Positions 33,967-58,994 of a stretch of DNA of 59,120 nucleotides are shown here, one piece after another. The notes under the pieces were generated by a model. The model ran no database searches, was not told where the DNA came from, and saw only the letters and a list, made by a program, of their open reading frames with translations. Within the stretch, counting starts at the first letter, position 1; every line of letters begins with the position of its first letter. Position numbers and translations under genes: made by a program. Source of the stretch: Syntrophomonadaceae bacterium (GTDB taxonomy: Bacteria; Bacillota; Dethiobacteria; DTU022); NCBI GenBank assembly GCA_007119615.1, contig SKPH01000001.1:1-59120 (forward strand), read 5' to 3'.

Positions 33967-34015
33967 TGTTTCATGTAACTCAAAACTTACATCTGTAGAA
34001 GGAGAGGGTCAAGTA

Positions 34016-35146: not shown

Positions 35147-35306
35147 ATTTGCCGCTTGAAAAGTAACAGGTCGAGCTAGTTAGAGCTGTAAATTAAACTG
35201 GTGGAGGGGGCATCCGCTATCCCCGGGGAGTTTACCCGGTGAGGTGGGCGCCCTCTCTGATGGAAAACAGGAGTACTGAATACGCCAAAGACGGGGGAGG
35301 ATATAC

Positions 35307-37209: not shown

Positions 37210-37944
37210 TTATTCATGATCGGAATCTCTATGGCCTGTCTTGCCGAAATCCGTATTCTCAATTACGAATAAGCTCTCCGAGCTGTTCCGGCTTAATTTC
37301 ATTGCCAGGGAAATTGCCTGGGTTCTGTTTTTAACCTGAAGCTTTTGATAAATATTGCGCAGGTGGGTCTTGACCGTGTCGACTGCCAGATTGGTAGCCG
37401 CGGATATTTCTTTATTGGTCAACCCTTTGACTAATTGTCTGAGTATTTCCTGTTCCCTCGGAGTCAGCTCAACCCGCTTTTCTTCTTTATCCAGAGGTTT
37501 TATCTCGGTAAGTTTTTTGCTCAGCCGTGTATAGTCGTTAACGATCTGGCGAAAAACAGACTGGTCTATAATAGTTTCTCCACTATGAACTCTTTTGATT
37601 GTGTCTATAAGATTTTGTCTGCTGACATGTTTGAGGATATAGCCGGAAGCCCCGGACTGCAGGGCCAATCGGATCGATTCGGTATCTTCAAAAATTGTTA
37701 AGAAGATCACTTTGATTTCCGGTTTTTGGGCCAGGATCTGCTTTGCAGTTTCAATCCCGTTGACACCCTCCATATTGATATCCATTAAAATGATATCAGG
37801 TTCGGCAGAATGAGCTTTCTCAAGAGCTTCTGAGCTATTCCCTGCGCTGGCAACAATGGTAATTTCTTCGATGTTTTCAAGCATATTGGACAACCCTTCC
37901 CGAACCATGGGATGATCATCGACTATGAGAATCTTTATGGCCAC
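37210..37944 (-). CDS. NarL/LuxR-family response regulator (REC plus HTH_LuxR)
   Basis: ILIVDDHPMVREGL ... DIILMDINMEGVNGIE. The HTH is LTPREQEILRQLVKGLTNKEISAATNLAVDTVKTHLRNIYQKLQV. A tail of about 35 aa follows the HTH. Confidence 0.9.
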   Translation of the reverse strand: MAIKILIVDDHPMVREGLSNMLENIEEITIVASAGNSSEALEKAHSAEPDIILMDINMEGVNGIETAKQILAQKPEIKVIFLTIFEDTESIRLALQSGASGYILKHVSRQNLIDTIKRVHSGETIIDQSVFRQIVNDYTRLSKKLTEIKPLDKEEKRVELTPREQEILRQLVKGLTNKEISAATNLAVDTVKTHLRNIYQKLQVKNRTQAISLAMKLSRNSSESLFVIENTDFGKTGHRDSDHE

Positions 37945-37968
37945 GATAGGACTCCTTTCCGCATAATT

Positions 37969-39645
37969 TTATATCGGTATGGTTACGCTGATCCGTGTTC
38001 CTTCACCGGGTCGGGAATCAATTCTGCAGGCGCCTCCCAACAGCAGGGCTCGTTCCTGAATGCTGGCCAGGCCCAGGCGATTGTGAAGTTGCGGAGTATC
38101 GGCAGGTTCCGTATTTATTCCGGACCCGTTGTCTTCCACGGAAAGATTCACCTCATGGTCCTGAATATCAAGGCAGACTTTGACTTTGGTCGCGCTGGAG
38201 TGCTTTATTACATTTGTCAGCGCTTCCTGCAGGATCCTGAATAAAGCAACTTCTATATTCGAAGCCAATCTCTGATTTTCCCCATTAACCTTAAGTTCGA
38301 TAGGAAGATTATTCTTTTCGGAAATGTCAAAAACGTGAGTTTCAACAGCTGGAATCAACCCGTAATTGTCCAGAATAATCGGGCGCAGGTCGTACAGAAT
38401 ACGCCTTACTTCCTGGATTTGCTCACTTAATACATTCGTGATATCGGTGATTTCAGAATGCCATTTTTGCGATTCGGCCTTTTCGGCAGATGAGATTCGC
38501 TGTAGTCGGTACCAGATGGCTATCAGGGATTGGATTATGCCGTCATGCAGATCGGAAGCCAAACGCTTGCGCTCATCTTCCTGTGCTGTAGTCAGTTTAT
38601 CCACCAGCTGGTGCAGCAGTTGTTCTTTTTGGCCAAGTTTTTCGATTAAAGCCGCATTTTCCATGGCAACCGCGGTGGCGCGGGCAATGGCGAAAATAAT
38701 TTCTATTTCCTCGCTGTCGAAGCCGCCTGACTCCAGAGGCCGATCCAGCTGCATAATGCCGATGGTTTTTCCTTTACTAAGAATTGGGACCAGCAAAACC
38801 CAGCTGTATGCAAAATCCTCTATAATCTCCCTGGGGAGCATCCTGGATATGTTCTCCGGGGTTATCACTACCGGTTGCTCTGTTTTTATAGCCCGTTTGA
38901 TACCCGGGAAAAGTCTTGCGCCTTTTAAGGCTTTAAATTTTTTTTTCAATTCGGGATCATAACTTCCCACAGCGACTGCCGGAATCAGGGTCTGATCTAT
39001 CTCGTTCAGTAGGTATATACAGTTTTTTGCTGAAAAGAGGTCTGCTGTTAGCTGAGTAACGACATGAAGAACCTGTCTTAGATCTAAAGTGGAGCTGATG
39101 GTGTTAACTAACTCCAGCCAGACGGCAAGCTTTCTCAGGTGGCGATCTTTTTGTCTCCGGAAGAGTGACTCCTGGATGATGTCGGCCATATGGCGGCCCA
39201 AAGAGACTGCTTTGGCCAGCATATACTGCCCGCTCCGGTAGTCGGTGTTGAAGATACCGATTTCCATCGTACCGACAGGATCTCCGGCCTTTAAAAGGAC
39301 CGGAAAAGTGGTAGAAATGACTGGGGAAAGGGGCTCCAGCAACTTTTTCTTCTGCAGGTTTTCTTCATCAGACAGGTAATCTTTTAATTGAGAACATCTT
39401 TCCAGATGAGCGGTACCACCGGTATCCGCTTCTTCCCCGTTTTTTGAAGCATGCCAGCATACCACATCTTTGTCATCTCGAACCAGCATCAGGCTGGCCT
39501 GCCCGAAATCAAAATAGTCAACAGAAGTTTGCAGGGTATTTTGCAGGGAGGTTTTTACCTGCTTAATTGTTGTAAAGCCGGAGCTAACACGGCAGATCAA
39601 AATCAGTTCCGGCCTGGCCTTTGGGTCAGGTATGTGCTTTAGCAA
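37969..39645 (-). CDS. cytoplasmic sensor histidine kinase: GAF-like N-terminal sensory region, then HisKA_3 and HATPase_c
   Basis: No TM segments. H-box EDERKRLASDLHDGIIQSL, N-box EALTNVIKHS and G-box VEDNGSGI. TTG start after GGGTGG. Confidence 0.85.
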   Translation of the reverse strand: MLKHIPDPKARPELILICRVSSGFTTIKQVKTSLQNTLQTSVDYFDFGQASLMLVRDDKDVVCWHASKNGEEADTGGTAHLERCSQLKDYLSDEENLQKKKLLEPLSPVISTTFPVLLKAGDPVGTMEIGIFNTDYRSGQYMLAKAVSLGRHMADIIQESLFRRQKDRHLRKLAVWLELVNTISSTLDLRQVLHVVTQLTADLFSAKNCIYLLNEIDQTLIPAVAVGSYDPELKKKFKALKGARLFPGIKRAIKTEQPVVITPENISRMLPREIIEDFAYSWVLLVPILSKGKTIGIMQLDRPLESGGFDSEEIEIIFAIARATAVAMENAALIEKLGQKEQLLHQLVDKLTTAQEDERKRLASDLHDGIIQSLIAIWYRLQRISSAEKAESQKWHSEITDITNVLSEQIQEVRRILYDLRPIILDNYGLIPAVETHVFDISEKNNLPIELKVNGENQRLASNIEVALFRILQEALTNVIKHSSATKVKVCLDIQDHEVNLSVEDNGSGINTEPADTPQLHNRLGLASIQERALLLGGACRIDSRPGEGTRISVTIPI

Positions 39646-39724: not shown

Positions 39725-39749
39725 CTTTGGGCATTACGAAAGTGCTCAT

Positions 39750-39808
39750 CCGAAGGTGTTAGCTCCCATTTCACTCTTTTTAACCTTGATTCCATGCTTT
39801 TTAGGGAT
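39750..39808 (+). promoter_or_regulatory. copy A of the conserved ~60-nt upstream element
   Basis: CCGAAGGTGTTAGCTCCCATTTCACTCTTTTTAACCTTGATTCCATGCTTTTTAGGGAT. It lies 192 nt upstream of the ATG at 40001 and is near-identical to copy B. Confidence 0.8.
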
Positions 39809-40000
39809 TTTATTATTGTCTGTCTTTGTTTAATATTTAGTTAATGGACTTGCACCCGGAGATAATTCTTTCAGCAAAATCCGGAGTGATGAAGTGGGTG
39901 CTTTTAAAGCCGGGAGTTTGGAGCAGGTTAAGTTATGTTTGCGTTTCAACCTGCATTTTTTGTCTTTCGAAAATGATCAAGCTGCCGGAGGGTGGGTGCG

Positions 40001-40804
40001 ATGACCTGGAAATCTTTTTATAAGACCGGAGAAAAGTTAGATTATCACTCTTTTGAGTGGCGCAACCATATTGACGACATGGTATTTGGTCCTGACAGCA
40101 GGGAATCAGAGCAGTTAAAAGAACTTCTAACCCGCTACCCGGTTCAAACAGCCCTCGATGTTGCCTGTGGGAACGGAGATACTGCGATTTTTCTGGCCGC
40201 AATGGGTAAAAATGTTACAGCGATGGATCAGGATATTTCTCGGATTAAAAGGGTTCATTTGAAAAGCATTCTGGCCGGAGTCCAACTTGAAACTGCCTGT
40301 GGTGATATGCGCGATCTTTCCAGTGTATACCGGCATAAATGTAACCTGATCATGTGTTTGCAAAATTCATTGTCTCGACTGATAGACGAAGCCGATATAT
40401 GGGGAACCCTTGCTCAGATGTATCTGGCGCTTGAACCCGGAGGACTGCTGGTGATTCAAATGTTTGATTACGATCGCCTTTTTCAGGAAAAAAGGCCTTC
40501 CTTTTCCGAAATTTGCGGCTATAACAGCGAGCTTGGAGTTAAAACTTTTTTTGAATATGAACGCAATAAATCAAATGCGAAATTTATTTTTGAAGTCTCC
40601 AGCCAATATTCTGCGGGAAGAAAAGCAGATCGGATCGTTTTCCCGGTGAGACCGATTTTTCAGAAAGAACTGGATATGTGGCTGGCTGAGCTGGGGTTCA
40701 GAAAACTTGATAATTGCGAAGAGGTTAAAGGCAGCTATATATCGGGAGAAACCTGGCAAACGGTGACGGCAGCTTTTCGGCCGGGTGTTACAGATAACCA
40801 CTAA
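40001..40804 (+). CDS. class I SAM-dependent methyltransferase
   Basis: Motif I LDVACGNGD. ATG 40001 lies 9 nt after GGAGG (the track start is GTG 39992). Confidence 0.75.
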   Translation: MTWKSFYKTGEKLDYHSFEWRNHIDDMVFGPDSRESEQLKELLTRYPVQTALDVACGNGDTAIFLAAMGKNVTAMDQDISRIKRVHLKSILAGVQLETACGDMRDLSSVYRHKCNLIMCLQNSLSRLIDEADIWGTLAQMYLALEPGGLLVIQMFDYDRLFQEKRPSFSEICGYNSELGVKTFFEYERNKSNAKFIFEVSSQYSAGRKADRIVFPVRPIFQKELDMWLAELGFRKLDNCEEVKGSYISGETWQTVTAAFRPGVTDNH

Positions 40805-40817
40805 AGGAGGAGTTTAG

Positions 40818-41564
40818 ATGCGTTTACAGGGAAAGGTTGTGATTGTTACCGGTGCAAGTAAAGGAATTGGTGAGGCAGTCTCCCTGGGCCTGGCCCGTGA
40901 AGGAGCTGATCTGGTCCTGGTAAGCCGCAAGATCAAAGCAGATGAGCAGGTCGTTCTGGAAGCAAAAAAAATGGGTCGCCGGGTACTGGTTAAGCAGGTT
41001 GATGTTGGTGATAACGACCAGGTAACTGAGATGGTTGACGAGACTATAGATACTTTTGGCCGGGTTGACGCACTGTTTAATAATGCCGGTATCAGTAAGC
41101 CGGCTATGCTTTGGAAAATGACTCCTGAGCAGTGGGAAGAGGTGCTTAGAATAAATCTAACCGGTACCTTTTACTGCATCCGGGCGGTGGCAAAGCCGAT
41201 GATAGAAAAACAATCAGGTTCGATTATTAATGTAACATCCTCTGCCGGTCTGCTTGGAACGATCGGGCAGGTTAATTATACAGCGGCCAAAGGAGGGGTT
41301 TACGCTATGGGCAGGTCTGCAGCCAAAGAACTGGCCCGTTATGGGATCAGAGTGAATACGATTGCACCGATGGCTGAAACCGAGATGACGCAGGTCATTG
41401 CCAATGATCCCAAGTTTAAGGCAAAGTACCTGGAGCGAATTCCACTGGGGCGTTTCGGCCTTCCGGAGGAAATTGCGCCGGCGGTTGTATTTTTAGTGTC
41501 GGATGAATCGAGTTATATCACCGGGCAGACTATCTGCATTGACGGCGGCCTGGTAATGCCTTAA
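40818..41564 (+). CDS. short-chain dehydrogenase/reductase (FabG / 3-hydroxyacyl-CoA dehydrogenase-like)
   Basis: VTGASKGIGEA, NNAGI and the catalytic YTAAKGG (YxxxK). Confidence 0.85.
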   Translation: MRLQGKVVIVTGASKGIGEAVSLGLAREGADLVLVSRKIKADEQVVLEAKKMGRRVLVKQVDVGDNDQVTEMVDETIDTFGRVDALFNNAGISKPAMLWKMTPEQWEEVLRINLTGTFYCIRAVAKPMIEKQSGSIINVTSSAGLLGTIGQVNYTAAKGGVYAMGRSAAKELARYGIRVNTIAPMAETEMTQVIANDPKFKAKYLERIPLGRFGLPEEIAPAVVFLVSDESSYITGQTICIDGGLVMP

Positions 41565-41610
41565 ACTTTATGTAAACTCGCACATGAAAACTATTTGAGG
41601 AGGGATGGTT

Positions 41611-42765
41611 ATGCCTAAAGATGTGGCAATCATCGGAGTGGGGCAAAGTGCTTTTGTCAGAGGTTATGAAGGCTCGATCCGGGAACTTTCATTCGAAGCT
41701 TACAGGGAAGCAATGCAGGATGCGGGTATTACTTCATCGGAGGTGGATGCCTCTATAGTCTGCTCCGCTCCCGAGTATGACAAACAGCGCAGCCCTTCAG
41801 GCCTGATTGCAGAGTACCTGGGATTGAATCCACAACCTACCTTTGCCATTGAGAGCGTCTGCTCGTCTAGCACAACCGGGATCAGAACGGCATATGCATT
41901 GATAAAAAGCGGTTTACATGATCTGGTTGCAGTGATCGGTTTTCAAAAAATGTCGGAGATTTCTTCTGCTGATTCCCAGGAGCGTATGGGCCGCGGCGCT
42001 GATATTATGTGGGAATCTCCTTTCGGCACGACGATGCCGGCATACTATGCCATGCATGCCCGGTCCCATTTCAACACTTTCGGCAGTACGGAGAAAGATC
42101 TTGCCCTGATCAGGGTAAAGGCGGCTAAGTATGGCCAGTTAAATGATAAAGCCGTTTACCGCAAGGATCTTGCCCTGGATCAGGTTTTGAACTCCGATTA
42201 TGTTACTACCCCTTTAAAAAGGTTTGATTGTTGCGCCAACGCTGACGGATCCTCCTGTATTATTTTAGCTTCTGCGGAAAAAGCCAGAGAACTTTCAGCC
42301 AAAACTGTATGGATTATGGGTCTGGGGTCGGCCACCGCATCTTTGAGCATGACCGGCCGGAATAGCTACGACGGACTGGAGAGTGTGCGCCTGGCTGCCC
42401 GGCAGGCATATGAAATGGCCTCTCTGACACCCGGGGATATTGATGTCGCCGAGGTGCACGACTGCTTTACTATTGCCGAACTGATGGCTTACGAAAACCT
42501 CGGGTTCGCAGAACCCGGCAGGGGAGTGGAGCTTATCCGGGACGGAGAAACTTACCTTGAAGGCAGGATTCCGGTAAATGTTGACGGAGGGCTTTTATCT
42601 AAAGGGCATCCGATCGGAGCTACCGGGGGCTCCCAGGTGAGGACTATTGTACTTCAGCTTCGCGGAGAGGCCGGAGAAATTCAGGTTCCGGGTGCGGAAA
42701 TTGGCCTGGTTCATAATGTTGGCGGCGTGGGTATATATGGAAATGTAATCATCCTGGGAAGCTGA
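41611..42765 (+). CDS. SCP-x/BbsB-type thiolase-like protein
   Basis: ESVCSSSTTG (nucleophilic Cys), GHPIGATGG and HNVGG. This clade normally partners with a DUF35 OB-fold protein. Confidence 0.75.
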   Translation: MPKDVAIIGVGQSAFVRGYEGSIRELSFEAYREAMQDAGITSSEVDASIVCSAPEYDKQRSPSGLIAEYLGLNPQPTFAIESVCSSSTTGIRTAYALIKSGLHDLVAVIGFQKMSEISSADSQERMGRGADIMWESPFGTTMPAYYAMHARSHFNTFGSTEKDLALIRVKAAKYGQLNDKAVYRKDLALDQVLNSDYVTTPLKRFDCCANADGSSCIILASAEKARELSAKTVWIMGLGSATASLSMTGRNSYDGLESVRLAARQAYEMASLTPGDIDVAEVHDCFTIAELMAYENLGFAEPGRGVELIRDGETYLEGRIPVNVDGGLLSKGHPIGATGGSQVRTIVLQLRGEAGEIQVPGAEIGLVHNVGGVGIYGNVIILGS

Positions 42766-42781
42766 AAGGGGCCGGACCTGT

Positions 42782-43648
42782 TTGAGGACACCAGTAGTTG
42801 ACTTTCATATTCATCCAATCTTTTACGACAAGTTTTATGTTGAAAGCGCGCTTAACTGGATCAAGGAGATGCACGCTGATAAAGATTGGGATCAGTTTTA
42901 TCAGACCTATTCCGATCCGGATTTCTTTGTAAACTACCTGAAGGAAAACGGTGTCGATTATGGTGTAGTGATGGCCGATATATGTCCGGCGGTAACCGGT
43001 GTATGTACCAACGAATATGTCCTCGATTTTTGCAACGGCAGGGATGCCCTGGTACCGTTTGCCAGTATTAACCCATATTTAACCGTCCAAACAGGAAGAG
43101 AGCTGCAGCGCTTGATTGGTGAAGGTTTCCGGGGAGTTAAACTCTATCCTACTTATCAGCATTATTTCCCCAACCAGCGCTTTCTCTACCCCCTGTACAG
43201 CCTGGCTGAAGAATTGAAAGTGCCGCTAATGGTCCATACCGGTTCTTCTGTGTTCAGAGGAGCAAAATTAAAGTACGGAGATCCTCTCTACCTTGATGAA
43301 GTTGCTGTTGATTTCCCGGGTTTAAAAATTATTCTGGTCCACAGCGGTAGGGGGTTCTGGTACGATCGCGCTTTTCTATTAACCCGGTTGCATGACAATG
43401 TCTACATGGAAGTCGCCGGGCTGCCTCCACAAAAATTATTGGAATATTTCCCAGAACTTGAAAGAATTACAGATAAGGTTATATTTGGTTCAGATTGGCC
43501 GGGCATAACAGATCTGAAAGGAAATATTGAATCAATCCGGCAGCTACCGCTGAGCGCAGAGGCTATAAAAAATATTCTTGGAGGCAATGCCGTCAGATTG
43601 CTGGGTTTGCCAACTGTGAATTATCGGAAAGACGACAGAATGTCTTAA
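42782..43648 (+). CDS. amidohydrolase-2 family metal-dependent hydrolase/(de)carboxylase
   Basis: N-terminal HxH (VVDFHIHP), LVHSGRG and FGSDWP, as in the ACMSD/LigW/LigI fold family. Confidence 0.7.
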   Translation: MRTPVVDFHIHPIFYDKFYVESALNWIKEMHADKDWDQFYQTYSDPDFFVNYLKENGVDYGVVMADICPAVTGVCTNEYVLDFCNGRDALVPFASINPYLTVQTGRELQRLIGEGFRGVKLYPTYQHYFPNQRFLYPLYSLAEELKVPLMVHTGSSVFRGAKLKYGDPLYLDEVAVDFPGLKIILVHSGRGFWYDRAFLLTRLHDNVYMEVAGLPPQKLLEYFPELERITDKVIFGSDWPGITDLKGNIESIRQLPLSAEAIKNILGGNAVRLLGLPTVNYRKDDRMS

Positions 43649-43981
43649 TAGAGAAAATAAAAAAGGAAATTATTTTTATTTGTAGAATTTGAAAGATTGA
43701 AACTTTAAGGGGTGGTTGTTAATAAAAGTTATGGAGATCAAGGCTTTGCAGGATATTGTTTGATTTATTGCTGCTTATTGATATATGCGCAGATTTGTAA
43801 AACGGCAGTATGGATGCTTCTCATTTTTCTTGAAAAACTCGAAAAATGTATTAATAAGGCAGCACCGGTAATTCTGCTTAGTCAACTACCGACCGGGCAT
43901 GGCCGGTTGGGGGTGTGCATGCACTGAAGCAATGTTGAATTAAGGCCCATGCAGTGTTTATAAACTGGAGGTGTCACCACG

Positions 43982-45013
43982 ATGGATAGTTTTGATCCCC
44001 TGAATATACTCGTAGCTTTACAACCCGGATTGGGAAGCCCGGTTGAGTACGAAGAACTGATTAAAGAGCGGTTTCCTGAGGAAGTGAGGACTGGAAAAAT
44101 AAAGATCAGGCTGATCCAGGATGGCTCCGCTTCATCTACCCCTGATGAATACCTTGATACGCATATTATAGGAGCCGGAGTAGTTGTGGAAAGGGTCCCG
44201 GAGATGAAAAATCTGCAGTGGGTAATGACGTTCAGCGCCGGAATTGATCACTGGGAAAAATGGGGCAAACTACCCGGGCATGTAGCGTTGACCAACCTTC
44301 CGGGGGGTTCGGGGATTCCGATTTCTGAATTTGTAATCGGTCTGATGCTGAATCTTGCAAAAAAATATAACCAGCTCTGGGATCAGCAGAAAGAGAGAAA
44401 GTTCATCCGTGTTCGCGGTGAAGAGCTTTATAAAAAAACCGTTGGCATTATCGGACTCGGGGGAATTGGCCGGCAGATTGCGAAGCGTGCCAAAGCGTTC
44501 GACATGAAAGTGATCGGGACGGATATCAACACTGCAGATATTCCCCACGTTGACGAAGTCTACTTAAGCAATGAGTCTGATCAAGTAATCCGTCAAAGCG
44601 ATTACCTGATTCTCGCCTGCCCGGAGACAGAAGAAACCCGGGGAATGATCAATGAGAGATCGCTCAGGTTGATGAAAAATACAGCTTACCTGATAAACTG
44701 CGCTCGCGGATCTCTGATCATAAAGGAAGATTTAATTAAAGCCCTGAATGAAGAGTGGATTGCAGGAGCGGCCAACGATACCCACTGGATTAAAAAGCCA
44801 CTTCCTTCTTACCTTCCTGCAGAAGACGAACTGTGGGCCTGTAAAAACATTCTGATTACCCCCCATATTTCCAGCTGGAGTGATCAGTATGCACCCAGGT
44901 TCGGCGGTGTGTTTGTTGATAATATTGAACGTTTTTTAAATAAAGAACCACTCTTAAACGTTGCACCCGGTTTTGAGGGCGATCCGCAATGGCTGAAAAA
45001 TGTTAATGCTTAA
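43982..45013 (+). CDS. D-isomer-specific 2-hydroxyacid dehydrogenase (NAD-binding)
   Basis: GIIGLGGIGRQIA (GxGxxGR), NCARGSLI (catalytic Arg) and TPHISS (catalytic His). Confidence 0.8.
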   Translation: MDSFDPLNILVALQPGLGSPVEYEELIKERFPEEVRTGKIKIRLIQDGSASSTPDEYLDTHIIGAGVVVERVPEMKNLQWVMTFSAGIDHWEKWGKLPGHVALTNLPGGSGIPISEFVIGLMLNLAKKYNQLWDQQKERKFIRVRGEELYKKTVGIIGLGGIGRQIAKRAKAFDMKVIGTDINTADIPHVDEVYLSNESDQVIRQSDYLILACPETEETRGMINERSLRLMKNTAYLINCARGSLIIKEDLIKALNEEWIAGAANDTHWIKKPLPSYLPAEDELWACKNILITPHISSWSDQYAPRFGGVFVDNIERFLNKEPLLNVAPGFEGDPQWLKNVNA

Positions 45014-45025
45014 AGGAGAAAATAT

Positions 45026-46180
45026 TTGAACCTATCAGAATTAACAGCACCATTCGAAAAGGCTCTTACAGAACCTGGAGAACAGGTCAGGCAATGGAAG
45101 GCAAAGCAGGGGGGCAGAGCCGTCGGATTTCTGATGACCGATGTTCCCGAGGAGTTGATCCACGCCGCCGGATTTTTCCCATATGGAATTGCCGGTGGAA
45201 ACGCGGAGATGGAAGCTGCTGATGCGCATCTGCAGCCCTGGATATGTTCTTATGCCCGTAACTGCCTTGCTCTGGCCTTGGGAGGAAAGCTGGACTTCCT
45301 GGATGGACTGATAGTTCCACAAAATTGTGATACCACCCGGATGTTTTCGGATCTATTGAACCATATCCGGCCTTTTCCGTACATGGATATTTTCCGCATG
45401 CCCAGGCAGGTCGGCCGTTCCAGCGCCGGCAGCTATCTGATTGGCGAGATGGAAAGACTTAAATACGGGCTTGAGCAGTATGCCGGAAAGCCGATCGATC
45501 ATAGTGATCTAAGAAGCAGCATTGCTCTCTATAATCGCAACAGGGAACTTTTGCGCAGGATTGCTGATATCCATGCTCAGAATCCCAACCTGATCAGCAG
45601 CCGGGATCTGTATACCCTGATCAATGGCTCCATGATTATGCCCAGGGAAGAGGTCGGCGAGTTGTTGACCGCGATTAGAGAGGTATTGGAAGGATTAACC
45701 GGAAGCGGCAATGCCGGAAACCAGGTCCGGCTGTTATTATCAGGAACACTGCTGGAACCATTGGAAATCCTCGATTTAATCGATCAGTGTGGGGGTACAG
45801 TCATCGGAGACGATTTTCAGAATGGGTTTCGCTATATTGAGAGTGATGTCGCAATTAAAGATGATCTTTTGGATGCCCTTGCCGAACGTCAGCTTAACCG
45901 TATTCCTTCTTCTGCATTTGATATCGAGCACAGGCAGAGAAGATATTATTTAACAGAAGTAGCTGAGGATAAAAATGCTTCCGGTGTTATTTTCCTGCAT
46001 CTTGGTTTTTGTGAACCTGAAAACTTTGACAGCTATGATAATTTGCAGGCTATGAAGAGGGCCGGTATTCCTGCCATCCGAATTGAAACCCAGTTTGGAC
46101 GATCAACCCTGGGGCAAATACGGACCAGGATTCAGGCCTTTATGGAGATGGTGGGAGGTGACGACAGTGGCTGCCGGTGA
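45026..46180 (+). CDS. 2-hydroxyacyl-CoA dehydratase / benzoyl-CoA reductase (BcrB/C, HgdA/B) family subunit
   Basis: A 384-aa ORF with conserved Cys contexts WICSYARNC, PQNCDTTRM and GFCEPENFD. It is adjacent to, and translationally coupled with, a paralogous subunit. Confidence 0.7.
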   Translation: MNLSELTAPFEKALTEPGEQVRQWKAKQGGRAVGFLMTDVPEELIHAAGFFPYGIAGGNAEMEAADAHLQPWICSYARNCLALALGGKLDFLDGLIVPQNCDTTRMFSDLLNHIRPFPYMDIFRMPRQVGRSSAGSYLIGEMERLKYGLEQYAGKPIDHSDLRSSIALYNRNRELLRRIADIHAQNPNLISSRDLYTLINGSMIMPREEVGELLTAIREVLEGLTGSGNAGNQVRLLLSGTLLEPLEILDLIDQCGGTVIGDDFQNGFRYIESDVAIKDDLLDALAERQLNRIPSSAFDIEHRQRRYYLTEVAEDKNASGVIFLHLGFCEPENFDSYDNLQAMKRAGIPAIRIETQFGRSTLGQIRTRIQAFMEMVGGDDSGCR

Positions 46181-47363
46181 GGTTTTTAAAACTGCCTCTT
46201 TAATGAAAGAATTGATGACCCGCTACAACGAGACCGGAAAAGAAGCAAAGGACAGCGGTATCCCGGTGGCCTGGGTCACAGCCGTTTCTCCGGTGGAAAT
46301 TATTTATGCCGCCGGGCTATTTCCGTATTATCCGGAGAATTTTGGTGCGGTTGCTGCTGCCAGGAAAGTTGCCGATAAATTATCAGCTTTTGCAGAAGCC
46401 AGGGGGTATGCCCGGGATCTATGCGGTTACGCCCGCTGCGGTATCGGTGATGCTTATGCTACAGAACATCCGGTTGGAGAAATATTGAGCCCTGATCTTT
46501 TATTCTGCTGCAATACCCAGTGTGGCAGCCTGCCTAAATGGTTTGAAGTAGCGGGGAGATTTTACAATGTGCCGTATTTTTTACTTGATGCGCCCAGGGT
46601 GGGACTTGAAACAGACCAGCTATGCAATAGCTATTATGTAGAACAACTTCATGAAATGATCGCATTTATTGAAAAACTGACCGGCAATCCTTTCGATTAT
46701 GACCGCCTGTCCGAAGTGCTGGCTCTTTCCAACGAAGCCTGCCGCCTGTGGAATGAGATTTTAGAGACTGCCGCCTTAAAACCGGCCCCCTTTGGTTTTT
46801 TTGACGCCAGTTTTCACATGGCGCCAATTGTAACTTTAAGGGGAACCCGGGAGGCCGTAGATTATTACCGGGCGTTAAAAGAAGAAATTGATGAAAGGAT
46901 AGAACAGGGAATAACAGCAATACCGGATGAGCGCTACAAAATATATTTTGATCACATTCCCTGCTGGCCCAGATTGCGCTGGTTTTCTGATTTATTCGCT
47001 TCACATGGGGCGCTGGTAGCGGTTTCACAATATACTCATTCCTGGGCATATTCCTTTGATCTGGAACGCCCCCTGGAAAGCCTGGCCGAAAACTATACCC
47101 ATGAATTTGTTAACCGCTGTTTCGATTATCGGGTGGAGAGAAAGATTAACCTGATGGAAAAATACGGGGTTGACGGTTTTGTATTATTTTCAAACCGCAG
47201 TTGTAAGCCCAATGCGATCGGTCTTTACGCAAAAAGCAAACTGATCAGAGAAAAAACAGGACTGCCGGGAGTTGTGTTTGAAGCGGATATGTCTGATCTG
47301 CGCTTTTTTTCTGAAGCACAGGTGCTGGCGAAACTGGAATCATTTTTTGAACAGCTGAAATAA
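46167..47363 (+). CDS. 2-hydroxyacyl-CoA dehydratase / benzoyl-CoA reductase family subunit (second subunit)
   Basis: GTG 46167 lies 6 nt after GGGAGGTG; the track start 46083 overlaps the preceding gene by about 100 nt. Cys contexts: DLCGYARCG, FCCNTQCGS and NRSCKPN. Confidence 0.7.
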   Translation: MAAGEVFKTASLMKELMTRYNETGKEAKDSGIPVAWVTAVSPVEIIYAAGLFPYYPENFGAVAAARKVADKLSAFAEARGYARDLCGYARCGIGDAYATEHPVGEILSPDLLFCCNTQCGSLPKWFEVAGRFYNVPYFLLDAPRVGLETDQLCNSYYVEQLHEMIAFIEKLTGNPFDYDRLSEVLALSNEACRLWNEILETAALKPAPFGFFDASFHMAPIVTLRGTREAVDYYRALKEEIDERIEQGITAIPDERYKIYFDHIPCWPRLRWFSDLFASHGALVAVSQYTHSWAYSFDLERPLESLAENYTHEFVNRCFDYRVERKINLMEKYGVDGFVLFSNRSCKPNAIGLYAKSKLIREKTGLPGVVFEADMSDLRFFSEAQVLAKLESFFEQLK

Positions 47364-47391
47364 GATCATACTAACGAGGAGAGGATTAACG

Positions 47392-49140
47392 TTGAAGAAA
47401 TTAATGACTGGAAACGAAGCTTTTGCCTACGGAGCATACCTGGGCGGAGTCCGCGTAGGGGCAGCTTATCCCGGCACTCCCAGTTCGGAGATTCTGGATA
47501 ATTTTTCTAAATATCCGGGTGTTTTCGCCGAATGGTCCCCCAACGAAAAGGTTTCCATGGATGTGGCTATTGGAGCGGCGTATGCGGGCACCAGGGCGAT
47601 GTGCGTGATGAAACATGTCGGTTTGAATGTTGCCGCAGATTCGTTCTTTTATGCCGTCTATACCGGGGTAAAGGGCGGCCTGGTGATAGTTTGTGCCGAC
47701 GACCCTGATATGCACAGTTCGCAAAATGAGCAGGACAACCGTAACTATGCCAAGTTTGCCAAATGCCCGATGCTCGAACCTTCCGACAGTGAAGAAGCCA
47801 AACAGTTTGTCGGTATGGCCCTGGATTTGAGCGAGCAATTTGAAACACCGGTTCTGGTCCGAAGCGTGACTCGTTTATCGCACTCATCTACTCCGGTGGA
47901 TGTTACAGAAGCGGTTCCAGCACCGCCTTCGGAAGAGCTGCCGTTGTTTGAACGCGATGCGCAGAGATATGTAATGGTTCCCTCCAATGCCCGGCGACGG
48001 CACCCGATCGTTGAAGAACGCCTGAAAAAACTTGCCGAGCATGCTGAATCGATGCCGATAAATTATATTGAACCCGGGAACGGGGAGCTTGGCATTGTCA
48101 GCGCCGGGGTAAACTATTATTATGCCAAAGAGGTCTTTCCCGATGCTACTTTCCTGAAGCTGGGAATGGTTTATCCTCTCCCTGAGAAGTTAATCCGGGA
48201 ATTTGCAGCAAAGGTAAAAACCGTTGTCGTAGTAGAGGAGCTCGATCCTTTCCTGGAAGAACAACTGCGGTTGATGGGTATCGAGGTCAAAGGCAAAGAT
48301 ATCTTCCCGCTGATTGGCGAATTTAGTCCTTCCCTGGTTCGCAGCTGTGCAGTTGAAGCCGGTTTGATCGAAGCCCCGGAGGCCCCTCCCGAGATTAAAA
48401 CAGAACTGGAGCGGCCGGTCCGGCCCCCGATGCTCTGTCCCGGCTGCGGCCACCGGGCCCTCTTTCATGTGCTTAAGGAAGCGGGTGTCCTGATCACCGG
48501 CGATATTGGCTGTTACACGCTGGGGTGGGCTCCCCCGCTCAGCGCTATGCATACTACAGGTTGCATGGGTGCAAGTATCGGTGTGGCTCACGGTATTGAC
48601 AAAGGTGGCGTAAAAGATGAAGTAGTTGCCGTCATCGGCGACTCGACATTTCTGCACTCGGGTATCCATCCGCTGATCGATGTTCTGTACAATCAGGGAG
48701 TTACTACCACCATTATTTCTGACAACAGCGCCACAGCGATGACCGGATTCCAGGAACACCCGGGTACCGGAATAACGATCCAGGATCAGACGACCACGGC
48801 GGTGGATCTGGAAAAATTGATCCGGGGCATAGGTTTTGAAAAAGTTGATGTCGTTGACTCCTACGACATTGAAAAAATGGCTGAAACACTGCAGGATCAT
48901 CTTAAAAGTGGAATGCCTTCGGTTATTATCGCCCGCCATCCCTGCGTGCTGAACACGAGAGTAAGAGAAAAGCCCCCGGAAGTTGATGTAGAACTGTGCC
49001 TGAACTGTGGTATTTGCCTGGATATCGGTTGTTCTCCACTTGTGCAGGAAGAGGATCACGTGCGAATCGATACCCTGCTGTGCAACGGATGCGGCCTTTG
49101 TGTGAAAGTTTGTCCCCAGGAAGCGATCATTTCGGAGTAA
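47392..49140 (+). CDS. iorA: indolepyruvate (arylpyruvate):ferredoxin oxidoreductase alpha subunit
   Basis: A 582-aa ORF with the TPP motif GDIGCYTLG...GDSTFLHSG and the C-terminal 2x[4Fe-4S] motifs CLNCGICLDIGCSP and CNGCGLCVKVCP. Confidence 0.85.
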   Translation: MKKLMTGNEAFAYGAYLGGVRVGAAYPGTPSSEILDNFSKYPGVFAEWSPNEKVSMDVAIGAAYAGTRAMCVMKHVGLNVAADSFFYAVYTGVKGGLVIVCADDPDMHSSQNEQDNRNYAKFAKCPMLEPSDSEEAKQFVGMALDLSEQFETPVLVRSVTRLSHSSTPVDVTEAVPAPPSEELPLFERDAQRYVMVPSNARRRHPIVEERLKKLAEHAESMPINYIEPGNGELGIVSAGVNYYYAKEVFPDATFLKLGMVYPLPEKLIREFAAKVKTVVVVEELDPFLEEQLRLMGIEVKGKDIFPLIGEFSPSLVRSCAVEAGLIEAPEAPPEIKTELERPVRPPMLCPGCGHRALFHVLKEAGVLITGDIGCYTLGWAPPLSAMHTTGCMGASIGVAHGIDKGGVKDEVVAVIGDSTFLHSGIHPLIDVLYNQGVTTTIISDNSATAMTGFQEHPGTGITIQDQTTTAVDLEKLIRGIGFEKVDVVDSYDIEKMAETLQDHLKSGMPSVIIARHPCVLNTRVREKPPEVDVELCLNCGICLDIGCSPLVQEEDHVRIDTLLCNGCGLCVKVCPQEAIISE

Positions 49141-49183
49141 GCCGGCGCGACTATTAAGTAAAAACAGAGAGGGAGGCTGAAAT

Positions 49184-49768
49184 ATGAAGAAAACAGACTT
49201 TTTAATGGCCGGGGTTGGCGGCCAGGGGACCATTCTGGCCAGTAATATATTGGCTGAGGTGGGGCTGCACCTGGGCTATGATGTAAAAAAAGCAGAAGTA
49301 CACGGAATGGCCCAGCGGGGCGGACAGGTAGACAGCCATGTCCGATGGGGAGAAAAAGTATACTCCCCATTGGTGGAGGAAAACAGCGTTGATTACATTG
49401 TAGGGTTTGAAATGCTGGAGGCTGCCCGCTTCCCGCATTTTATGAAAAAAGATGGCGTAGCTGTGGTTAACGATTACCGTATCAACCCACCCCTGGTAAA
49501 TCTGGGTAAAGCCAGCTATCCATCCAAGGAGGACATTGAGTCACTGCTCCTTACCAGGGCCGAAAAGGTGTATTGGATTGAAGGCACAAAGATTGCCGGG
49601 GAACTGGGCAACCCGGCCGTAGTCGGTGTGGTTCTGCTGGGGGCTCTGTCCAACCTGGTCGGAGGGGATAAAGAGGTATGGCTCGAGGTTATCGGGAAGA
49701 TGGTGCCGCCAAAGTTTGTTGATCTTAACCTTGAAGCTTTTGCAGCGGGCCGTCAGGTTACCGCTTAG
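49184..49768 (+). CDS. iorB: indolepyruvate:ferredoxin oxidoreductase beta subunit
   Basis: A 194-aa ORF with the gamma-domain motif GVGGQGTILAS, located immediately downstream of iorA. Confidence 0.85.
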   Translation: MKKTDFLMAGVGGQGTILASNILAEVGLHLGYDVKKAEVHGMAQRGGQVDSHVRWGEKVYSPLVEENSVDYIVGFEMLEAARFPHFMKKDGVAVVNDYRINPPLVNLGKASYPSKEDIESLLLTRAEKVYWIEGTKIAGELGNPAVVGVVLLGALSNLVGGDKEVWLEVIGKMVPPKFVDLNLEAFAAGRQVTA

Positions 49769-49801
49769 AAGGGACAAACATCTGAAAGAGGAGGGGATAC
49801 T

Positions 49802-51364
49802 GTGAATTTTGCTTCTTACGGCATTATAAACGCAAAGAAATATCCGGAAAAGGAGTTTCTGATTGAATGCTGTCCTTCCAGAAATGAACGAAGAGCTCTT
49901 TCCTGGAAAGAGTTTAATGAGCAAACCAACCGTGTGGCCAACTATTTGCAAAAACAGCTCGGAGTAAAAAAAGATGATTTTGTGTTGCACCTGCAGATGA
50001 ATAGTCTGGAGTGGATGGTTACCTATCATGCTATTTTGAGAGTGGGAGCAGTTGCGGTTCCACTTAATTTCCGCTTTGCTTCCTCAGATATTAAGTATGC
50101 AGCAGAGGCCAGCAATCCAAAAGTTTTTATTTTGAGTGAAGGGTTTCTGGAGAAAGTAGAGCCGATTCGGGAAGAGATGAAAACAATCAGCACTTATATC
50201 TGTATAGGCGATAATGTTCCTGCGGACATGATTCCCTACGCGGATGTTCTTAGCGATTCCAGTCCCGAAGATGTGCTCGTCGAAGTAGACGCTAGCGATC
50301 CGGCGGAATTGATGTTTACCTCGGGAACTACCGGCCCTCCCAAGCCTGTATGCCAGGCTCATGATACGCTATACCAGATCGGCATAGGTAATGCCCTGAC
50401 TTATGGAGAGGGGCACGAAACGGTTTACCTGGCTGCCCATCCCCTTTACCACAGCGGCAGCCTGTTTCTATCCTTCCCCTGTTACCTGGCGGGAGGCAAG
50501 ATTGTGATGCTTCTTGAACTTGATGATCCCAGGTATGTCCTCGATACCATCGTCAATGAAAAAATTAATAATGGTTGGGTTACGGTCCCGACTATGTCCG
50601 ATTCGATCAATGCGATTAAAAAAGGGGTCATCGATATAGATGAGTATGATTTTTCTCATGTTACCGGAAACATAGTAATCGGAGCTCAACCGGTTCCTTC
50701 GACTTTATTTAAGGATATGAAAAAGCTGTTGCCGTTTAGAACCGGTAATATTTATGGGATCACAGAAGGCGGCGGAGGCGGTACACTTAATCTTTACGAC
50801 GATGAAGTTTTAAAACGGCCCGGTTCTATTGGCAATCCGACTTTCAATGTTGCAGCCCGGGTTGTTGATGACCATGGCAACGATGTTCCGGTTGGAGAGG
50901 TCGGGGAATTGCTATTGAAAGGCCCTCGCAATATGAAAGAATATTTTAAAAATCCGGAGATGACCGCAAGAGCAATTCGGGATGGTTGGCTTTATACCGG
51001 GGACCTGGTGAAACAGGATGAAGACGGCTTTATCTATATCGCCGACCGGAAAAAAGATTTGATTATCAGGGGTGGAGAGAATATCTTCCCGGTGGAAATT
51101 GAAGATGTTTTGCGCCGCAACCCGAAGGTTGCCGATGTGGCGGTAATCGGATACCCGCATGAGCGTTACGTGGAGATTGCGATGGCCGTGGTACAGCTCT
51201 ATCCTGACGAAACAATGACAGAGCAGGAAGTGGTTGACTTCTGCAAGGAGCAGGGGCTGGCCAGGTATAAATGGCCGGAAAAAGTAGTTTTTGCTCCGGT
51301 AATGCGTAATGTTACCGGCAAAATTGACAAGCCCCGGCTGCGGGAAGAGTACATCGAAGGCTAA
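49802..51364 (+). CDS. AMP-forming acyl-/aryl-CoA ligase
   Basis: FTSGTTGPPKP (AMP-binding motif I), YGITEGGG, YTGDL and GGENIFPVEIE. GTG start after GAGGAGGGG. Confidence 0.85.
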   Translation: MNFASYGIINAKKYPEKEFLIECCPSRNERRALSWKEFNEQTNRVANYLQKQLGVKKDDFVLHLQMNSLEWMVTYHAILRVGAVAVPLNFRFASSDIKYAAEASNPKVFILSEGFLEKVEPIREEMKTISTYICIGDNVPADMIPYADVLSDSSPEDVLVEVDASDPAELMFTSGTTGPPKPVCQAHDTLYQIGIGNALTYGEGHETVYLAAHPLYHSGSLFLSFPCYLAGGKIVMLLELDDPRYVLDTIVNEKINNGWVTVPTMSDSINAIKKGVIDIDEYDFSHVTGNIVIGAQPVPSTLFKDMKKLLPFRTGNIYGITEGGGGGTLNLYDDEVLKRPGSIGNPTFNVAARVVDDHGNDVPVGEVGELLLKGPRNMKEYFKNPEMTARAIRDGWLYTGDLVKQDEDGFIYIADRKKDLIIRGGENIFPVEIEDVLRRNPKVADVAVIGYPHERYVEIAMAVVQLYPDETMTEQEVVDFCKEQGLARYKWPEKVVFAPVMRNVTGKIDKPRLREEYIEG

Positions 51365-51482: not shown

Positions 51483-52685
51483 TTGCGGATAGCGGAAGGC
51501 TGGAAAGTTGCGCTTGCAGGAGCCGGTGTGAATTTCTTTATGAGCATCCCCTATGCCTGGAGCATCATTGCATCCGGCCTGATTCAGCAATGGGGATGGA
51601 GCGCGGTTCAGGCAGCCTTCCCTTACACGGTTTTTTTAATCAGTTACTCATTATTTATGGCGCCGGTCGGAAGATGGCAGGACAGGGCGGGGCCGCGCCG
51701 GGTGATTGCTAAAGGTGGCTTAATTTTAGGAAGCGCATCTCTTATAAGCGCGTTTTTTATTAACCCGGTGGCGCTGGCGTTTCTGTGGGGAGGAGTTTAC
51801 GGGTTCGGAGCAGCCTGCTGCTATGCTTCCGCAACACCGGCGGCAATGAAATGGTTTCCGGCAGGAGAAAAAGGACTGGTCACCGGGGTAGTTGTAACCG
51901 GTGCGGGAATTTCAGCATTTGTGATGGCGCCCCTGATTTATTTCCTGACGGGTTACGGCATGAGAACCACTTTTGTGGTTCTCGGTTTTTTATTACTGGG
52001 TGGTATAACTCTACTTTCACGCTTAATTAATAATCCTCCCGGTCAGGTTTTCCGGCCGAAAGAGTTCCCCTTATCCGGACGATGGTACACTATCCTCCGG
52101 ATCCCTCAATTTGCCATGCTCTGGTTTATGTTCTGGGTCTCTACCGGCATTGGAGTGACCTTCGTGACTCACCTTGATACTATGGCCCGTGTTCAGGTAT
52201 CCTTTGGCCTTGGATACATCCTGGTGGCTCTTTTTGCTTTTTTTAATGCTGTTGGAAGAATGGCTGCCGGGGTGATAACTGATCGTATCGGGAGCACAAG
52301 GGCTATAACTCTTGATTTCAGTATCACACTGCTGGCCCTGTTCTTTCTTCTGCAGGCTAACTCTCCTTTATCGATGGGGCTAATAGTTTCGGGATTGGGT
52401 TTGACCTACGGGGGACTTTATACAATTTTTCCGGCAACCGTCGCCTCTTTTTTCGGAGAAAAAGATTTGGGGCTGGTTTACGGTTTAATTTTTACAGCAC
52501 TGGGAGCCGGGGGATTTTTCCCTTTAATAACGGGGCACCTTTTTGGTCGGCAGGGTGATTTTTCCGGAGCGTTTTTATTGCTGGTCATTTTTTGCGCAGC
52601 AGGTTTGGTGTTGTCGCTTTTCCTAAAAAAACCGGCTATCCGAAATGCGGTGGAAAATCCTGAGTCGCCTGTAAATCAGAAGTAA
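51483..52685 (+). CDS. MFS transporter (oxalate/formate-antiporter-like subfamily)
   Basis: A 400-aa ORF with about 12 TM segments. TTG start 8 nt after GAGGTG. Confidence 0.7.
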   Translation: MRIAEGWKVALAGAGVNFFMSIPYAWSIIASGLIQQWGWSAVQAAFPYTVFLISYSLFMAPVGRWQDRAGPRRVIAKGGLILGSASLISAFFINPVALAFLWGGVYGFGAACCYASATPAAMKWFPAGEKGLVTGVVVTGAGISAFVMAPLIYFLTGYGMRTTFVVLGFLLLGGITLLSRLINNPPGQVFRPKEFPLSGRWYTILRIPQFAMLWFMFWVSTGIGVTFVTHLDTMARVQVSFGLGYILVALFAFFNAVGRMAAGVITDRIGSTRAITLDFSITLLALFFLLQANSPLSMGLIVSGLGLTYGGLYTIFPATVASFFGEKDLGLVYGLIFTALGAGGFFPLITGHLFGRQGDFSGAFLLLVIFCAAGLVLSLFLKKPAIRNAVENPESPVNQK

Positions 52686-52840
52686 GAGATTTGAAGTTTG
52701 GAAAATACAAAATTAAAATCACCCATCGCTATGATCGATTTTTATCAAAGCATCCGGGGAAATTGGTTATTTTACGCCTGCGGTTACAGGTTACAGGATC
52801 AGGCAAACGTGTGAACAAGATCGTCTTTGATTATCGGGTA

Positions 52841-56883: not shown

Positions 56884-56979
56884 AATTTGTTTCGAATCTC
56901 CCGGTTATCTTCGATCTGTACGCCGGGGAACGCGGTCGTGATTTCTGCCAACCGCCTTCATGAATACCAGGGTGTTCAA

Positions 56980-58941: not shown

Positions 58942-58994
58942 AGAGTCACTGTCTCCTGATTTAAAAAAACAGGTTTCGAAACGGTCGGTGTTTT

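Follow-up and report, generated by a model that had tools for sequence, protein, structure and literature searches.

What might a run of genes do that sets a 2-hydroxyacyl-CoA dehydratase-like pair and an indolepyruvate:ferredoxin oxidoreductase (IOR) among genes for anaerobic benzoyl-CoA degradation? The question is raised by positions 40001-51364 of a 59,120-nucleotide (nt) window, the whole stretch of DNA analysed here (contig SKPH01000001.1, assembly GCA_007119615.1). The host is a Syntrophomonadaceae bacterium represented by a 1.06-Mb metagenome-assembled genome (MAG), ~70% complete, of soda-lake or alkali-sediment origin. A first-pass annotation had read the run as a peripheral module that funnels aryl-C3 acids to benzoyl-CoA. 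We consider it fairly probable that the module leads from phenylacetate, phenylpyruvate and phenyllactate to benzoyl-CoA through elongation, dehydration and β-oxidation of the side chain; each step is inferred from gene content, synteny and homology. The annotated passage of aryl-C3 acids to benzoyl-CoA through a dehydratase was retained, whereas the statements on prior art, the hydratase, the extent of the module and the direction of IorAB had to be revised. Gene families were assigned by Pfam and NCBIfam profiles on translations of open reading frames (ORFs), with bit scores judged against curated cut-offs. All ten annotated genes were present on the + strand, in the order and of the families named.

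The dehydratase-like subunits are encoded by HGD-beta (45026-46180, +; HGD-D, 274 bits) and HGD-alpha (46167-47363, +; HGD-D, 258 bits). These two paralogous HGD-D (PF06050) genes lie side by side, overlap by 14 nt, and form the only HGD-D pair in the genome (45026-47363). Because HGD homologues are ~400 amino acids (aa) long, the true start lies inside the listed ORF. A search of the Protein Data Bank (PDB) gave 205 bits for the alpha subunit against HadB and 172 bits for the beta subunit against HadC, versus only 133-140 and 135-137 bits for the class I reductase proteins MbdO/N and BzdO/N. HadBC of Clostridioides difficile (PDB 3O3M) was the best solved match for both subunits. Among NCBIfam models, alpha clearly preferred HadB (255 bits) to BcrB (167 bits), and beta weakly preferred HadC (200 bits) to BcrC (182 bits); the HadBC equivalog level was not reached (HadB 255 of 750 bits, HadC 200 of 700 bits). 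By sequence, the pair is a distinct clade within the 2-hydroxyacyl-CoA dehydratase-like proteins. Beta motifs CS..C, CDT and FCxPE are conserved and align with HadC, as do alpha motifs DLCxYAR, CCN..C and NRSCK with HadB. HGD-alpha keeps C86, C119 and C346 without exception in its clade, and in both subunits the cysteine motifs of the Fe-S sites match those of HadBC. The window differs from the HadBC system in its aromatic context and in having no HadA CoA-transferase.

The sole stand-alone activase in the genome is a single gene on another contig (C47:1225-2016; TIGR00241, 296 bits). The activase gene adjoins the HGD pair in two orthologous loci, L048 and L067, as well as in L101 from Desulfobacterales, and this single-activase arrangement points to a dehydratase, being unlike the two-ATPase arrangement of a reductase. 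Directly upstream of the pair lies a D-2-hydroxyacid dehydrogenase gene (2HADH; 43982-45013, +; 2-Hacid_dh_C, 177 bits), whose closest solved relative is the Haloferax D-2-hydroxyacid dehydrogenase. The earlier label "dehydratase-like" was borne out: greater similarity to HadBC than to MbdON/BzdNO, retained HadBC cysteine motifs and a stand-alone activase support assignment of the pair to the 2-hydroxyacyl-CoA dehydratase type and not to class I reductases. No FldA/HadA/GctAB-type CoA-transferase was found in the window or in related loci, and family III CoA-transferases occurred only on contigs C53 and C43; AMP-forming ligases are conserved where clostridial dehydratase systems have a CoA-transferase.

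Two further genes lie on these other contigs. Directly downstream of the activase on C47 is a - strand gene, cut by the contig end, for a LarA-type nickel-dependent 2-hydroxyacid racemase (L001:3-1337), whose best models, malate racemase and LarAH10, were both below cut-off; such a racemase could interconvert L- and D-phenyllactate. In C53:4761-13481, a 1468-aa protein carrying two BcrAD_BadFG ATPase domains is encoded close to a family III CoA-transferase, with no HGD-D partner by Pfam. This fused protein looks like a separate activase-type system.

A similar set of roles is known from amino-acid fermentation. Clostridium sporogenes reportedly has a phenyllactate dehydratase system of FldAIBC, FldH and FldL, work attributed to Dickert and colleagues in 2002 and to Dodd and colleagues in 2017. 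The system is also cited in PMC13416013. Like the window, it combines a D-2-hydroxyacid dehydrogenase, a two-subunit HGD-D dehydratase and a single-gene ATP-dependent activator, with cinnamoyl-CoA as the product that we propose here too. The likeness is one of gene roles and not of FldBC sequences. Fld uses an FldA-type CoA-transferase where the window cluster has AMP-forming ligases, and reduces its enoyl-CoA to phenylpropionate, whereas the route in the window would proceed by β-oxidation to benzoyl-CoA. Links to IorAB, PaaK and the Bam ring pathway set the window cluster apart from Fld.

The arrangement is widespread. HGD-alpha has hundreds of ~400-aa homologues, including those of Desulfoscipio gibsoniae (72% identity), Desulfosporosinus (68%) and Pelotomaculum (61%). 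When species-representative genomes were scanned, 76 loci were obtained, mainly from Dethiobacteria, "Syntrophomonadaceae" MAGs and Peptococcaceae-type Firmicutes. In these loci the core of 2HADH, HGD pair, IorAB and AMP-forming ligase recurs, usually with PaaK and a complete β-oxidation set. Synteny was counted in 46 loci with at least 6 kb of flank on both sides; because the genomes are related, the counts are not independent. IorA adjoins the HGD pair in 39/46 loci, making IorAB the closest companion of the dehydratase, followed by the ligase Lig2 (37), 2HADH (33), the SCP-x-type thiolase (29), the ligase Lig1 (25), the amidohydrolase-2 enzyme (AH2; 21), the SDR (short-chain dehydrogenase/reductase; 20), DUF35 (19), PaaK (18), 3-hydroxyacyl-CoA dehydrogenase (HCDH; 17), crotonase-type enoyl-CoA hydratase (ECH; 14) and the activase (9). 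In a Thermincola MAG (L048) the order is 2HADH-ligase-activase-HGDbeta-HGDalpha-IorA-IorB-PaaK-like-HCDH-thiolase-ECH-major facilitator superfamily (MFS) transporter, which, as judged from the families, is a complete set for the conversion of a 2-oxoacid through 2-hydroxyacyl-CoA, enoyl-CoA and 3-oxoacyl-CoA to thiolysis. No aminotransferase occurred in any mapped cluster. The check that the annotation had named, conservation of the neighbourhood in other bamB-containing Firmicutes, thus gave a positive result, and the presence of the same genes together in dozens of loci indicates that the arrangement is not a chance grouping. Most likely the run at 40001-51364 stands at the centre of a wider conserved module that spans ~30.3-58.9 kb of the window and includes the activase on C47. 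One variant was seen in Pelotomaculum terephthalicicum JT (L080:6634-8632), where malic-enzyme-like and UbiX-like flavoprotein genes stand between AH2 and HGD-beta in place of 2HADH.

From these genes we propose the following route. Tripartite ATP-independent periplasmic (TRAP) and MFS transporters would import the aromatic acid, and a PaaK-like phenylacetate-CoA ligase would form phenylacetyl-CoA. The latter gene, annotated as lying nearby, was located at 55588-56883 (+; AMP-binding_C_2); it is below the equivalog cut-offs of both PaaK models (NF041878, 377 of 700 bits; TIGR02155, 349 of 646 bits). IorA (47392-49140, +; TIGR03336, 689 bits against a cut-off of 651) and IorB (49184-49768, +; 227 bits with IorB models, slightly under the cut-off of 237) would use reduced ferredoxin and CO2 for the reductive carboxylation of phenylacetyl-CoA to phenylpyruvate. 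Phenylpyruvate that is imported or derived from phenylalanine would enter at this point. 2HADH would convert phenylpyruvate to (R)-phenyllactate, and an AMP-forming ligase, replacing the clostridial CoA-transferase, would produce (R)-phenyllactyl-CoA. The ligase may be Lig2 (52841-54412, -; AMP-binding, 274 bits; 51% identity to FadD4 of Desulfococcus multivorans) or Lig1 (49802-51364, +; AMP-binding, 246 bits; 50% identity to Dmul_24830); in many relatives Lig2 stands immediately upstream of HGD-beta, which makes it a candidate for the phenyllactate-CoA ligase. The HadBC/FldBC-like pair, activated by the ATP-dependent activase, would then yield cinnamoyl-CoA, from which a hydratase, a dehydrogenase and a thiolase would release benzoyl-CoA and acetyl-CoA. 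Benzoyl-CoA would pass into BamB-I and BamA.

The annotation had not known this combination as a described operon. A functionally equivalent and partly orthologous cluster has, however, been reported from D. multivorans in a proteogenomic study of Desulfobacteraceae (Dörries et al. 2016, PMC5109826). That strain has neither PadB nor PadEFGHI, as found earlier for Desulfobacula toluolica, and grows on phenyllactate. Its proteins Dmul_24730-24900 are formed specifically on phenylacetate and phenylpyruvate and comprise Hbd5, an HCDH-ECH fusion, a thiolase, a regulator, a TRAP transporter, two AMP-forming ligases, a "predicted R-phenyllactate dehydratase alpha", an "activator", a "putative phenylpyruvate reductase", an ACT protein and IorB3A3; the authors called the route to benzoyl-CoA unclear and left the genes unconnected (PMC5109826). 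The induction of this equivalent cluster by phenylacetate and phenylpyruvate, with growth on phenyllactate, agrees with the core of the proposed route. In two sulphate reducers phenylacetate induces β-oxidation enzymes together with IorAB (PMC5109826). That a phenylacetate module carries enzymes for cinnamoyl-CoA β-oxidation is intelligible only if the C2 side chain is first made C3, and implies a C6-C3 CoA ester as an intermediate.

We found the D. multivorans cluster in its genome (G055) by coordinates and gene sizes. Identity to the window proteins ranged from 28 to 66%: thiolase 66%, Hbd 56%, the two ligases 50-51%, IorB 42%, activator 39% (to the activase), dehydratase 34% and HCDH-ECH fusion 28%. 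Like the window, this cluster and its counterpart in D. toluolica Tol2 contain a TRAP transporter, a two-component system, two AMP-forming ligases, a dehydratase with activator, a 2-oxoacid reductase, IorAB, Hbd, an HCDH-ECH fusion and a thiolase. Unlike the window, D. multivorans has a single-subunit dehydratase and no SDR, SCP-x/DUF35 or methyltransferase in the cluster. Its reductase is of the PanE/ApbA family, whereas that of the window is of the D-2-hydroxyacid dehydrogenase family, indicating that the function was retained while the protein family was swapped. The 680-aa fusions of the D. multivorans phenylacetate cluster (L098:2050-4092) and cinnamate/3-phenylpropanoate cluster (L117:14113-16155) are 99.7% identical proteins and are hardly distinguishable in the published proteomics; the thiolases of the two clusters are 73% identical.

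Which enzymes would carry out hydration, oxidation and thiolysis is less uniform among the loci. The annotation's hydration step found no hydratase inside 40001-51364, and the crotonase at the window end (391 aa) is BamA and not a side-chain hydratase. Two alternative sets are embedded in HGD loci, namely AH2 with SDR and SCP-x/DUF35, or ECH with HCDH and thiolase. AH2 occurs with SDR in 19/21 loci and is almost exclusive with crotonase ECH (both in 1 locus, AH2 only in 20, ECH only in 13); the AH2/SDR/SCP-x set and HCDH are likewise nearly exclusive (1 locus with both). The SDR (40818-41564, +; adh_short_C2, 223 bits) follows AH2 and SCP-x in its distribution, hardly ever shares an HGD locus with HCDH, and is a candidate 3-hydroxy-3-phenylpropionyl-CoA dehydrogenase, alternative to HCDH. 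The SCP-x-type thiolase (41605-42765, +; Thiolase_C_1; NF004720, 421 bits against a cut-off of 420) was seen only in HGD-positive genomes (4/4) and is not BbsB itself (174 of 750 bits with the BbsB model). Its presumed partner DUF35 (57226-57636, +; OB_ChsH2_C and zf-ChsH2, i.e. Zn-ribbon and OB fold) is 15 kb away here and directly after SCP-x in relatives, a pairing of the BbsAB type.

The window also holds members of the second set. An HCDH-ECH fusion (30343-32409, -; 3HCDH_N and ECH_1) is a candidate cinnamoyl-CoA hydratase and 3-hydroxy-3-phenylpropionyl-CoA dehydrogenase; it shares the architecture of Dmul_24680 (cinnamate-induced) and Dmul_24740 (phenylacetate-induced), with only 28% identity. 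The adjoining thiolase II (32410-33624, -) is 65-66% identical to Dmul_24650 (cinnamate-induced) and Dmul_24750 (phenylacetate-induced), and its orthologues (67-73%) follow IorAB or HCDH in L044, L046, L048, L058, L065, L066 and L069, which makes it the best orthology-based candidate for the benzoylacetyl-CoA thiolase. An Hbd-type 3-hydroxyacyl-CoA dehydrogenase (54677-55528, +; 56% identity to the phenylacetate-induced Hbd5) sits between HGD-alpha and IorA in loci L040-L053. Thus SDR and SCP-x, to which the annotation had given oxidation and thiolysis, remain candidates, with the thiolase at 32410-33624 at least an equal one given its 65% identity to a cinnamate-induced D. multivorans enzyme. 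The last conversion to benzoyl-CoA may be catalysed by AH2, SDR and SCP-x/DUF35, by the fusion, Hbd and the thiolase at 32410-33624, or by both; both sets appear to be available in the window, and the best-supported candidates for hydratase, dehydrogenase and thiolase include 30343-33624, beyond the annotated range.

AH2 (42782-43648, +; Amidohydro_2, PF04909, 128 bits) has an intact metal site, with H9 and H11 (HxH), H152, H187 and D238 invariant, and its AlphaFold2 (AF2) model is a confident TIM barrel (pLDDT 84). Its fold matches were amidohydrolase-2 enzymes with similar scores, among them an uncharacterised Bordetella protein, LigW, LigY, LigJ, LigI-like lactonases and other decarboxylases, and the search does not separate decarboxylase, hydratase, C-C hydrolase and lactonase subgroups. 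AH2 keeps its place beside 2HADH and HGD in loci that have SDR and SCP-x elsewhere (L026, L062, L079, L080), and it occupies the place of the missing crotonase; LigJ, moreover, shows the amidohydrolase-2 fold to be able to hydrate a double bond. For these reasons our leading guess, a weak one, is that AH2 is an enoyl-CoA hydratase replacing crotonase. A second option is a CouO-like β-ketoacyl-CoA hydrolase. CouO/HpeF of Rhodococcus is an amidohydrolase-superfamily aryl-β-ketopropionyl-CoA hydrolase in hydroxycinnamate degradation (PMC4737184, PMC9618137) and, compared by description and not by sequence, shares with AH2 the superfamily, a metal-ligand Asp and a place in a phenylpropanoid β-oxidation cluster. 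Unlike that setting, the window also has a thiolase, and in the gene pattern AH2 replaces the hydratase and not the thiolase. An AH2 homologue of D. multivorans (L117:2334-3212, 292 aa, 40% identity) lies ~4 kb upstream of the cinnamate/3-phenylpropanoate cluster and ~30 kb from the phenylacetate cluster, and is absent from the protein table of PMC5109826.

At the head of the operon lies a gene for a class-I S-adenosylmethionine (SAM) methyltransferase (40001-40804, alternative start 39992, +; Methyltransf_25, Methyltransf_11). No NCBIfam model reached its cut-off, no specific family match was found, and the ESM Atlas gave only generic labels for it and for AH2. Its operon-head position is conserved, while its sequence diverges fast (just 32-60% identity in relatives).

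Several observations tie the module to the ring pathway. BamB-I-like genes, which the annotation expected to receive benzoyl-CoA, were located at 15455-26229, and the ring-opening hydrolase BamA/Oah at 57766-58941 (+; TIGR03200, 584 bits against a cut-off of 464). A repeat search and nhmmer revealed three copies of a ~100-bp element, upstream of bamB (15280-15378), upstream of the operon (39736-39833, +) and upstream of DUF35-bamA (56966-57064). In a phylum sample of 401 genomes, BamA was present in 7, and all 7 had an HGD-alpha homologue; in 6 of these the identity was at least 58%, and such orthologues occurred in just ~9 genomes of the sample. Six genomes of the same family had none of these genes, indicating that the module is accessory. 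One genome that is 100% complete (G658; L118, G658:C12:19000-35512) carries the order response regulator/histidine kinase-methyltransferase-SDR-SCPx-DUF35-AH2-2HADH-HGD and no BamA; by analogy with cinnamate-to-benzoate fermenters, it may stop at benzoyl-CoA or benzoate. The contig of the window ends 180 bp past bamA (58941-59120), and Dch and Had follow BamA in relatives. The contig end is the best explanation for the failure to detect Dch and Had in this MAG, which is probably an assembly effect.

The interval between AH2 and 2HADH bears on whether the run is one unit. The gap noted as 330 bp at 43649-43981 is real and measures 333 bp; it persists in most relatives (~240-480 nt). Neither a copy of the shared ~100-bp element (nhmmer) nor a terminator-like hairpin was found in it, and hits in a consensus promoter/terminator scan were at chance level. 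A motif GGCAG-N7-TGCT (GGCAGTATGGATGCTT, 43804-43819, +) occurs once in the window and recurs in most close relatives; ~110 nt upstream of it lies another conserved block, GAAT..ATTGAAAC. The motif resembles a sigma-54-like -24/-12 promoter, and the genome has rpoN and an enhancer-binding protein. The gap therefore probably holds its own promoter and separates two transcription units; the conserved adjacency of the units argues that they are functionally related, and not the unrelated operons that the annotation had named as a refutation.

The annotation had divided phenylalanine-derived phenylpyruvate between a phenyllactyl-CoA/cinnamoyl-CoA branch and a parallel oxidative branch in which IorAB yields phenylacetyl-CoA. 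Such a scheme needs the same gene content as ours, its oxidative direction is the textbook IOR reaction, and the D. multivorans authors likewise read IorA3B3 as oxidative for phenylpyruvate (PMC5109826). Phenylacetyl-CoA would, however, be a dead end: no Pad enzymes were found, and PadG did not exceed the cut-off in five cluster-bearing genomes (best 310 of 700 bits). The AMP-forming PaaK activates phenylacetate and does not release it, the tight linkage of IorAB to the dehydratase would be odd for a competing branch, and D. multivorans and D. toluolica form IorAB during growth on phenylacetate as well. We therefore regard this division as unlikely. With phenylacetate as the substrate, IorAB together with PaaK more plausibly works in the reductive direction, because both belong to the module core with IorAB closest to the dehydratase, because phenylacetate induces IorAB and β-oxidation enzymes even though phenylacetyl-CoA has no β-carbon to oxidise, and because PadG is below cut-off and no cluster has an aminotransferase. 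Reductive use of IOR with arylacetate activation is established in amino-acid synthesis by rumen bacteria and Methanococcus maripaludis; the reductive carboxylation of arylacetyl-CoA by IOR was reportedly described by Allison in 1965 and by Porat and colleagues in 2004. The Pad pathway of Thauera and Aromatoleum (PadJ, PadBCD, PadEFGHI) also leads from phenylacetate to benzoyl-CoA and begins with a phenylacetate-CoA ligase, but it oxidises the alpha-carbon via phenylglyoxylate and loses the carboxyl carbon as CO2, whereas the route proposed here would first elongate the side chain by one carbon. A literature search, with most subscription journals outside it, found no paper that takes phenylacetyl-CoA catabolically by way of phenylpyruvate to phenyllactyl-CoA. 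In a 2026 paper on benzene degradation, which comes from the group behind the proteogenomic studies, the sequence phenylpyruvate, phenyllactyl-CoA, cinnamoyl-CoA and benzoyl-CoA appears only as a hypothesis, and the Pad route is named as the known phenylacetyl-CoA pathway.

The run could also consist of two unrelated units, with methyltransferase, SDR, SCP-x, AH2 and DUF35 serving the lower benzoyl-CoA pathway (3-hydroxypimeloyl-CoA oxidation and thiolysis) and only 43982-51364 being peripheral. SDR-SCPx-DUF35 indeed stands directly before BamA in L032, L037, L062 and L080 and forms one run with BamA-Dch-Had in P. terephthalicicum JT; the gap at 43649-43981 carries a promoter-like motif and lacks the shared element. 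G658, with its methyltransferase-to-HGD run and no BamA, argues against such a split, as do four BamA-positive genomes without SCP-x and the finding that each of the five relatives tested, two of them with the SDR-SCPx-DUF35-BamA arrangement, has a canonical Had beside a Dch-like gene. The exchange of AH2/SDR/SCP-x for ECH/HCDH/thiolase inside HGD loci and the persistence of AH2 beside 2HADH and HGD are also difficult to reconcile with it, and we judge it improbable. A stronger form, with SDR substituting for Had and AH2 for Dch, was rejected because both canonical genes occur in those five relatives (including G002 and G003). That the genes act on aliphatic amino acids, with a HadBC-like dehydratase on 2-hydroxyisocaproyl-CoA or similar and IorAB as a branched-chain 2-oxoacid oxidoreductase, would agree with HadB and HadC as the best solved and NCBIfam matches and with ligases that match only generic fatty-acid models. 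It is nevertheless very unlikely, considering that IorA exceeds the IOR equivalog cut-off, PaaK is adjacent, the upstream element is common to the bam operons, the cluster co-occurs with BamA in 7/7 genomes, and related D. multivorans proteins are induced by aromatic acids. We give hardly any credence to the pair as the catalytic core of a class I benzoyl-CoA reductase (BCR)-type enzyme that would reduce aryl-CoA esters in an ATP-dependent manner. The superfamily is the same, beta scores 182 bits with BcrC against 200 with HadC, and some 44-45% identical homologues bear the JGI label "bcr-type benzoyl-CoA reductase subunit B"; but class I enzymes need two different ATPase subunits where this genome and the loci with an adjacent activase have one activase gene, alpha prefers HadB in both searches (255 vs 167 and 205 vs 140 bits), a D-2-hydroxyacid dehydrogenase is adjacent, and a class II reductase is already present.

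Some findings weigh against the route from phenylacetate to benzoyl-CoA that we favour. The dehydratase clade is far below the HadBC cut-offs and shares just 34% identity with its D. multivorans counterpart, and the substrate was therefore deduced from context alone, and the activase is outside the window. Two AMP-forming activations plus reduced ferredoxin would be costly for a strict anaerobe. D. gibsoniae, with the 72% HGD-alpha orthologue, is reported to have Pad genes, so the two routes can coexist. SDR, SCP-x and DUF35, where they stand beside BamA, could serve the ring pathway, and AH2 homologues (42-57% identity) in Desulfobacterota sit among housekeeping his and hem genes, which speaks against a dedicated role. 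The more far-reaching proposal, that strict anaerobes without PadBCD/PadEFGHI use the elongation route and that AH2 is the cinnamoyl-CoA hydratase of its Firmicutes version, is put forward only as a tentative possibility.

A TRAP transporter DctPQM (33830-37111, +; Pfam DctP, DctQ, DctM), for which aromatic-acid uptake is probable, is syntenic in relatives and has a counterpart in the D. multivorans module. Genes for a GAF histidine kinase and a LuxR-type response regulator (37210-39645, -; Pfam) are divergent from the operon and stay beside the cluster in many loci. The MFS transporter gene (51483-52685, +; MFS_1) is syntenic in L006 and L048. A 254-aa + strand ORF at 52691-53455 has no family match, overlaps Lig2 on the opposite strand and is unlikely to be a gene.

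The decay of protein and lignin yields phenylacetate as a major product. How strict anaerobes without Pad enzymes, such as sulphate reducers and syntrophs, convert it to benzoyl-CoA has been open since the proteogenomic studies of Desulfobacula (2013) and Desulfococcus (2016). The module described here may explain phenylacetate degradation in such bacteria, and the cluster with its wide conservation provides a testable hypothesis that covers nearly every conserved gene. If the hypothesis is true, a radical 2-hydroxyacyl-CoA dehydratase, an enzyme type known from amino-acid fermentation, would serve complete aromatic oxidation, and a 2-oxoacid:ferredoxin oxidoreductase would fix CO2 in a catabolic pathway. 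A new activity might be added to the amidohydrolase-2 superfamily, and the potential for aromatic degradation in soda-lake, aquifer and digester metagenomes could be better annotated.

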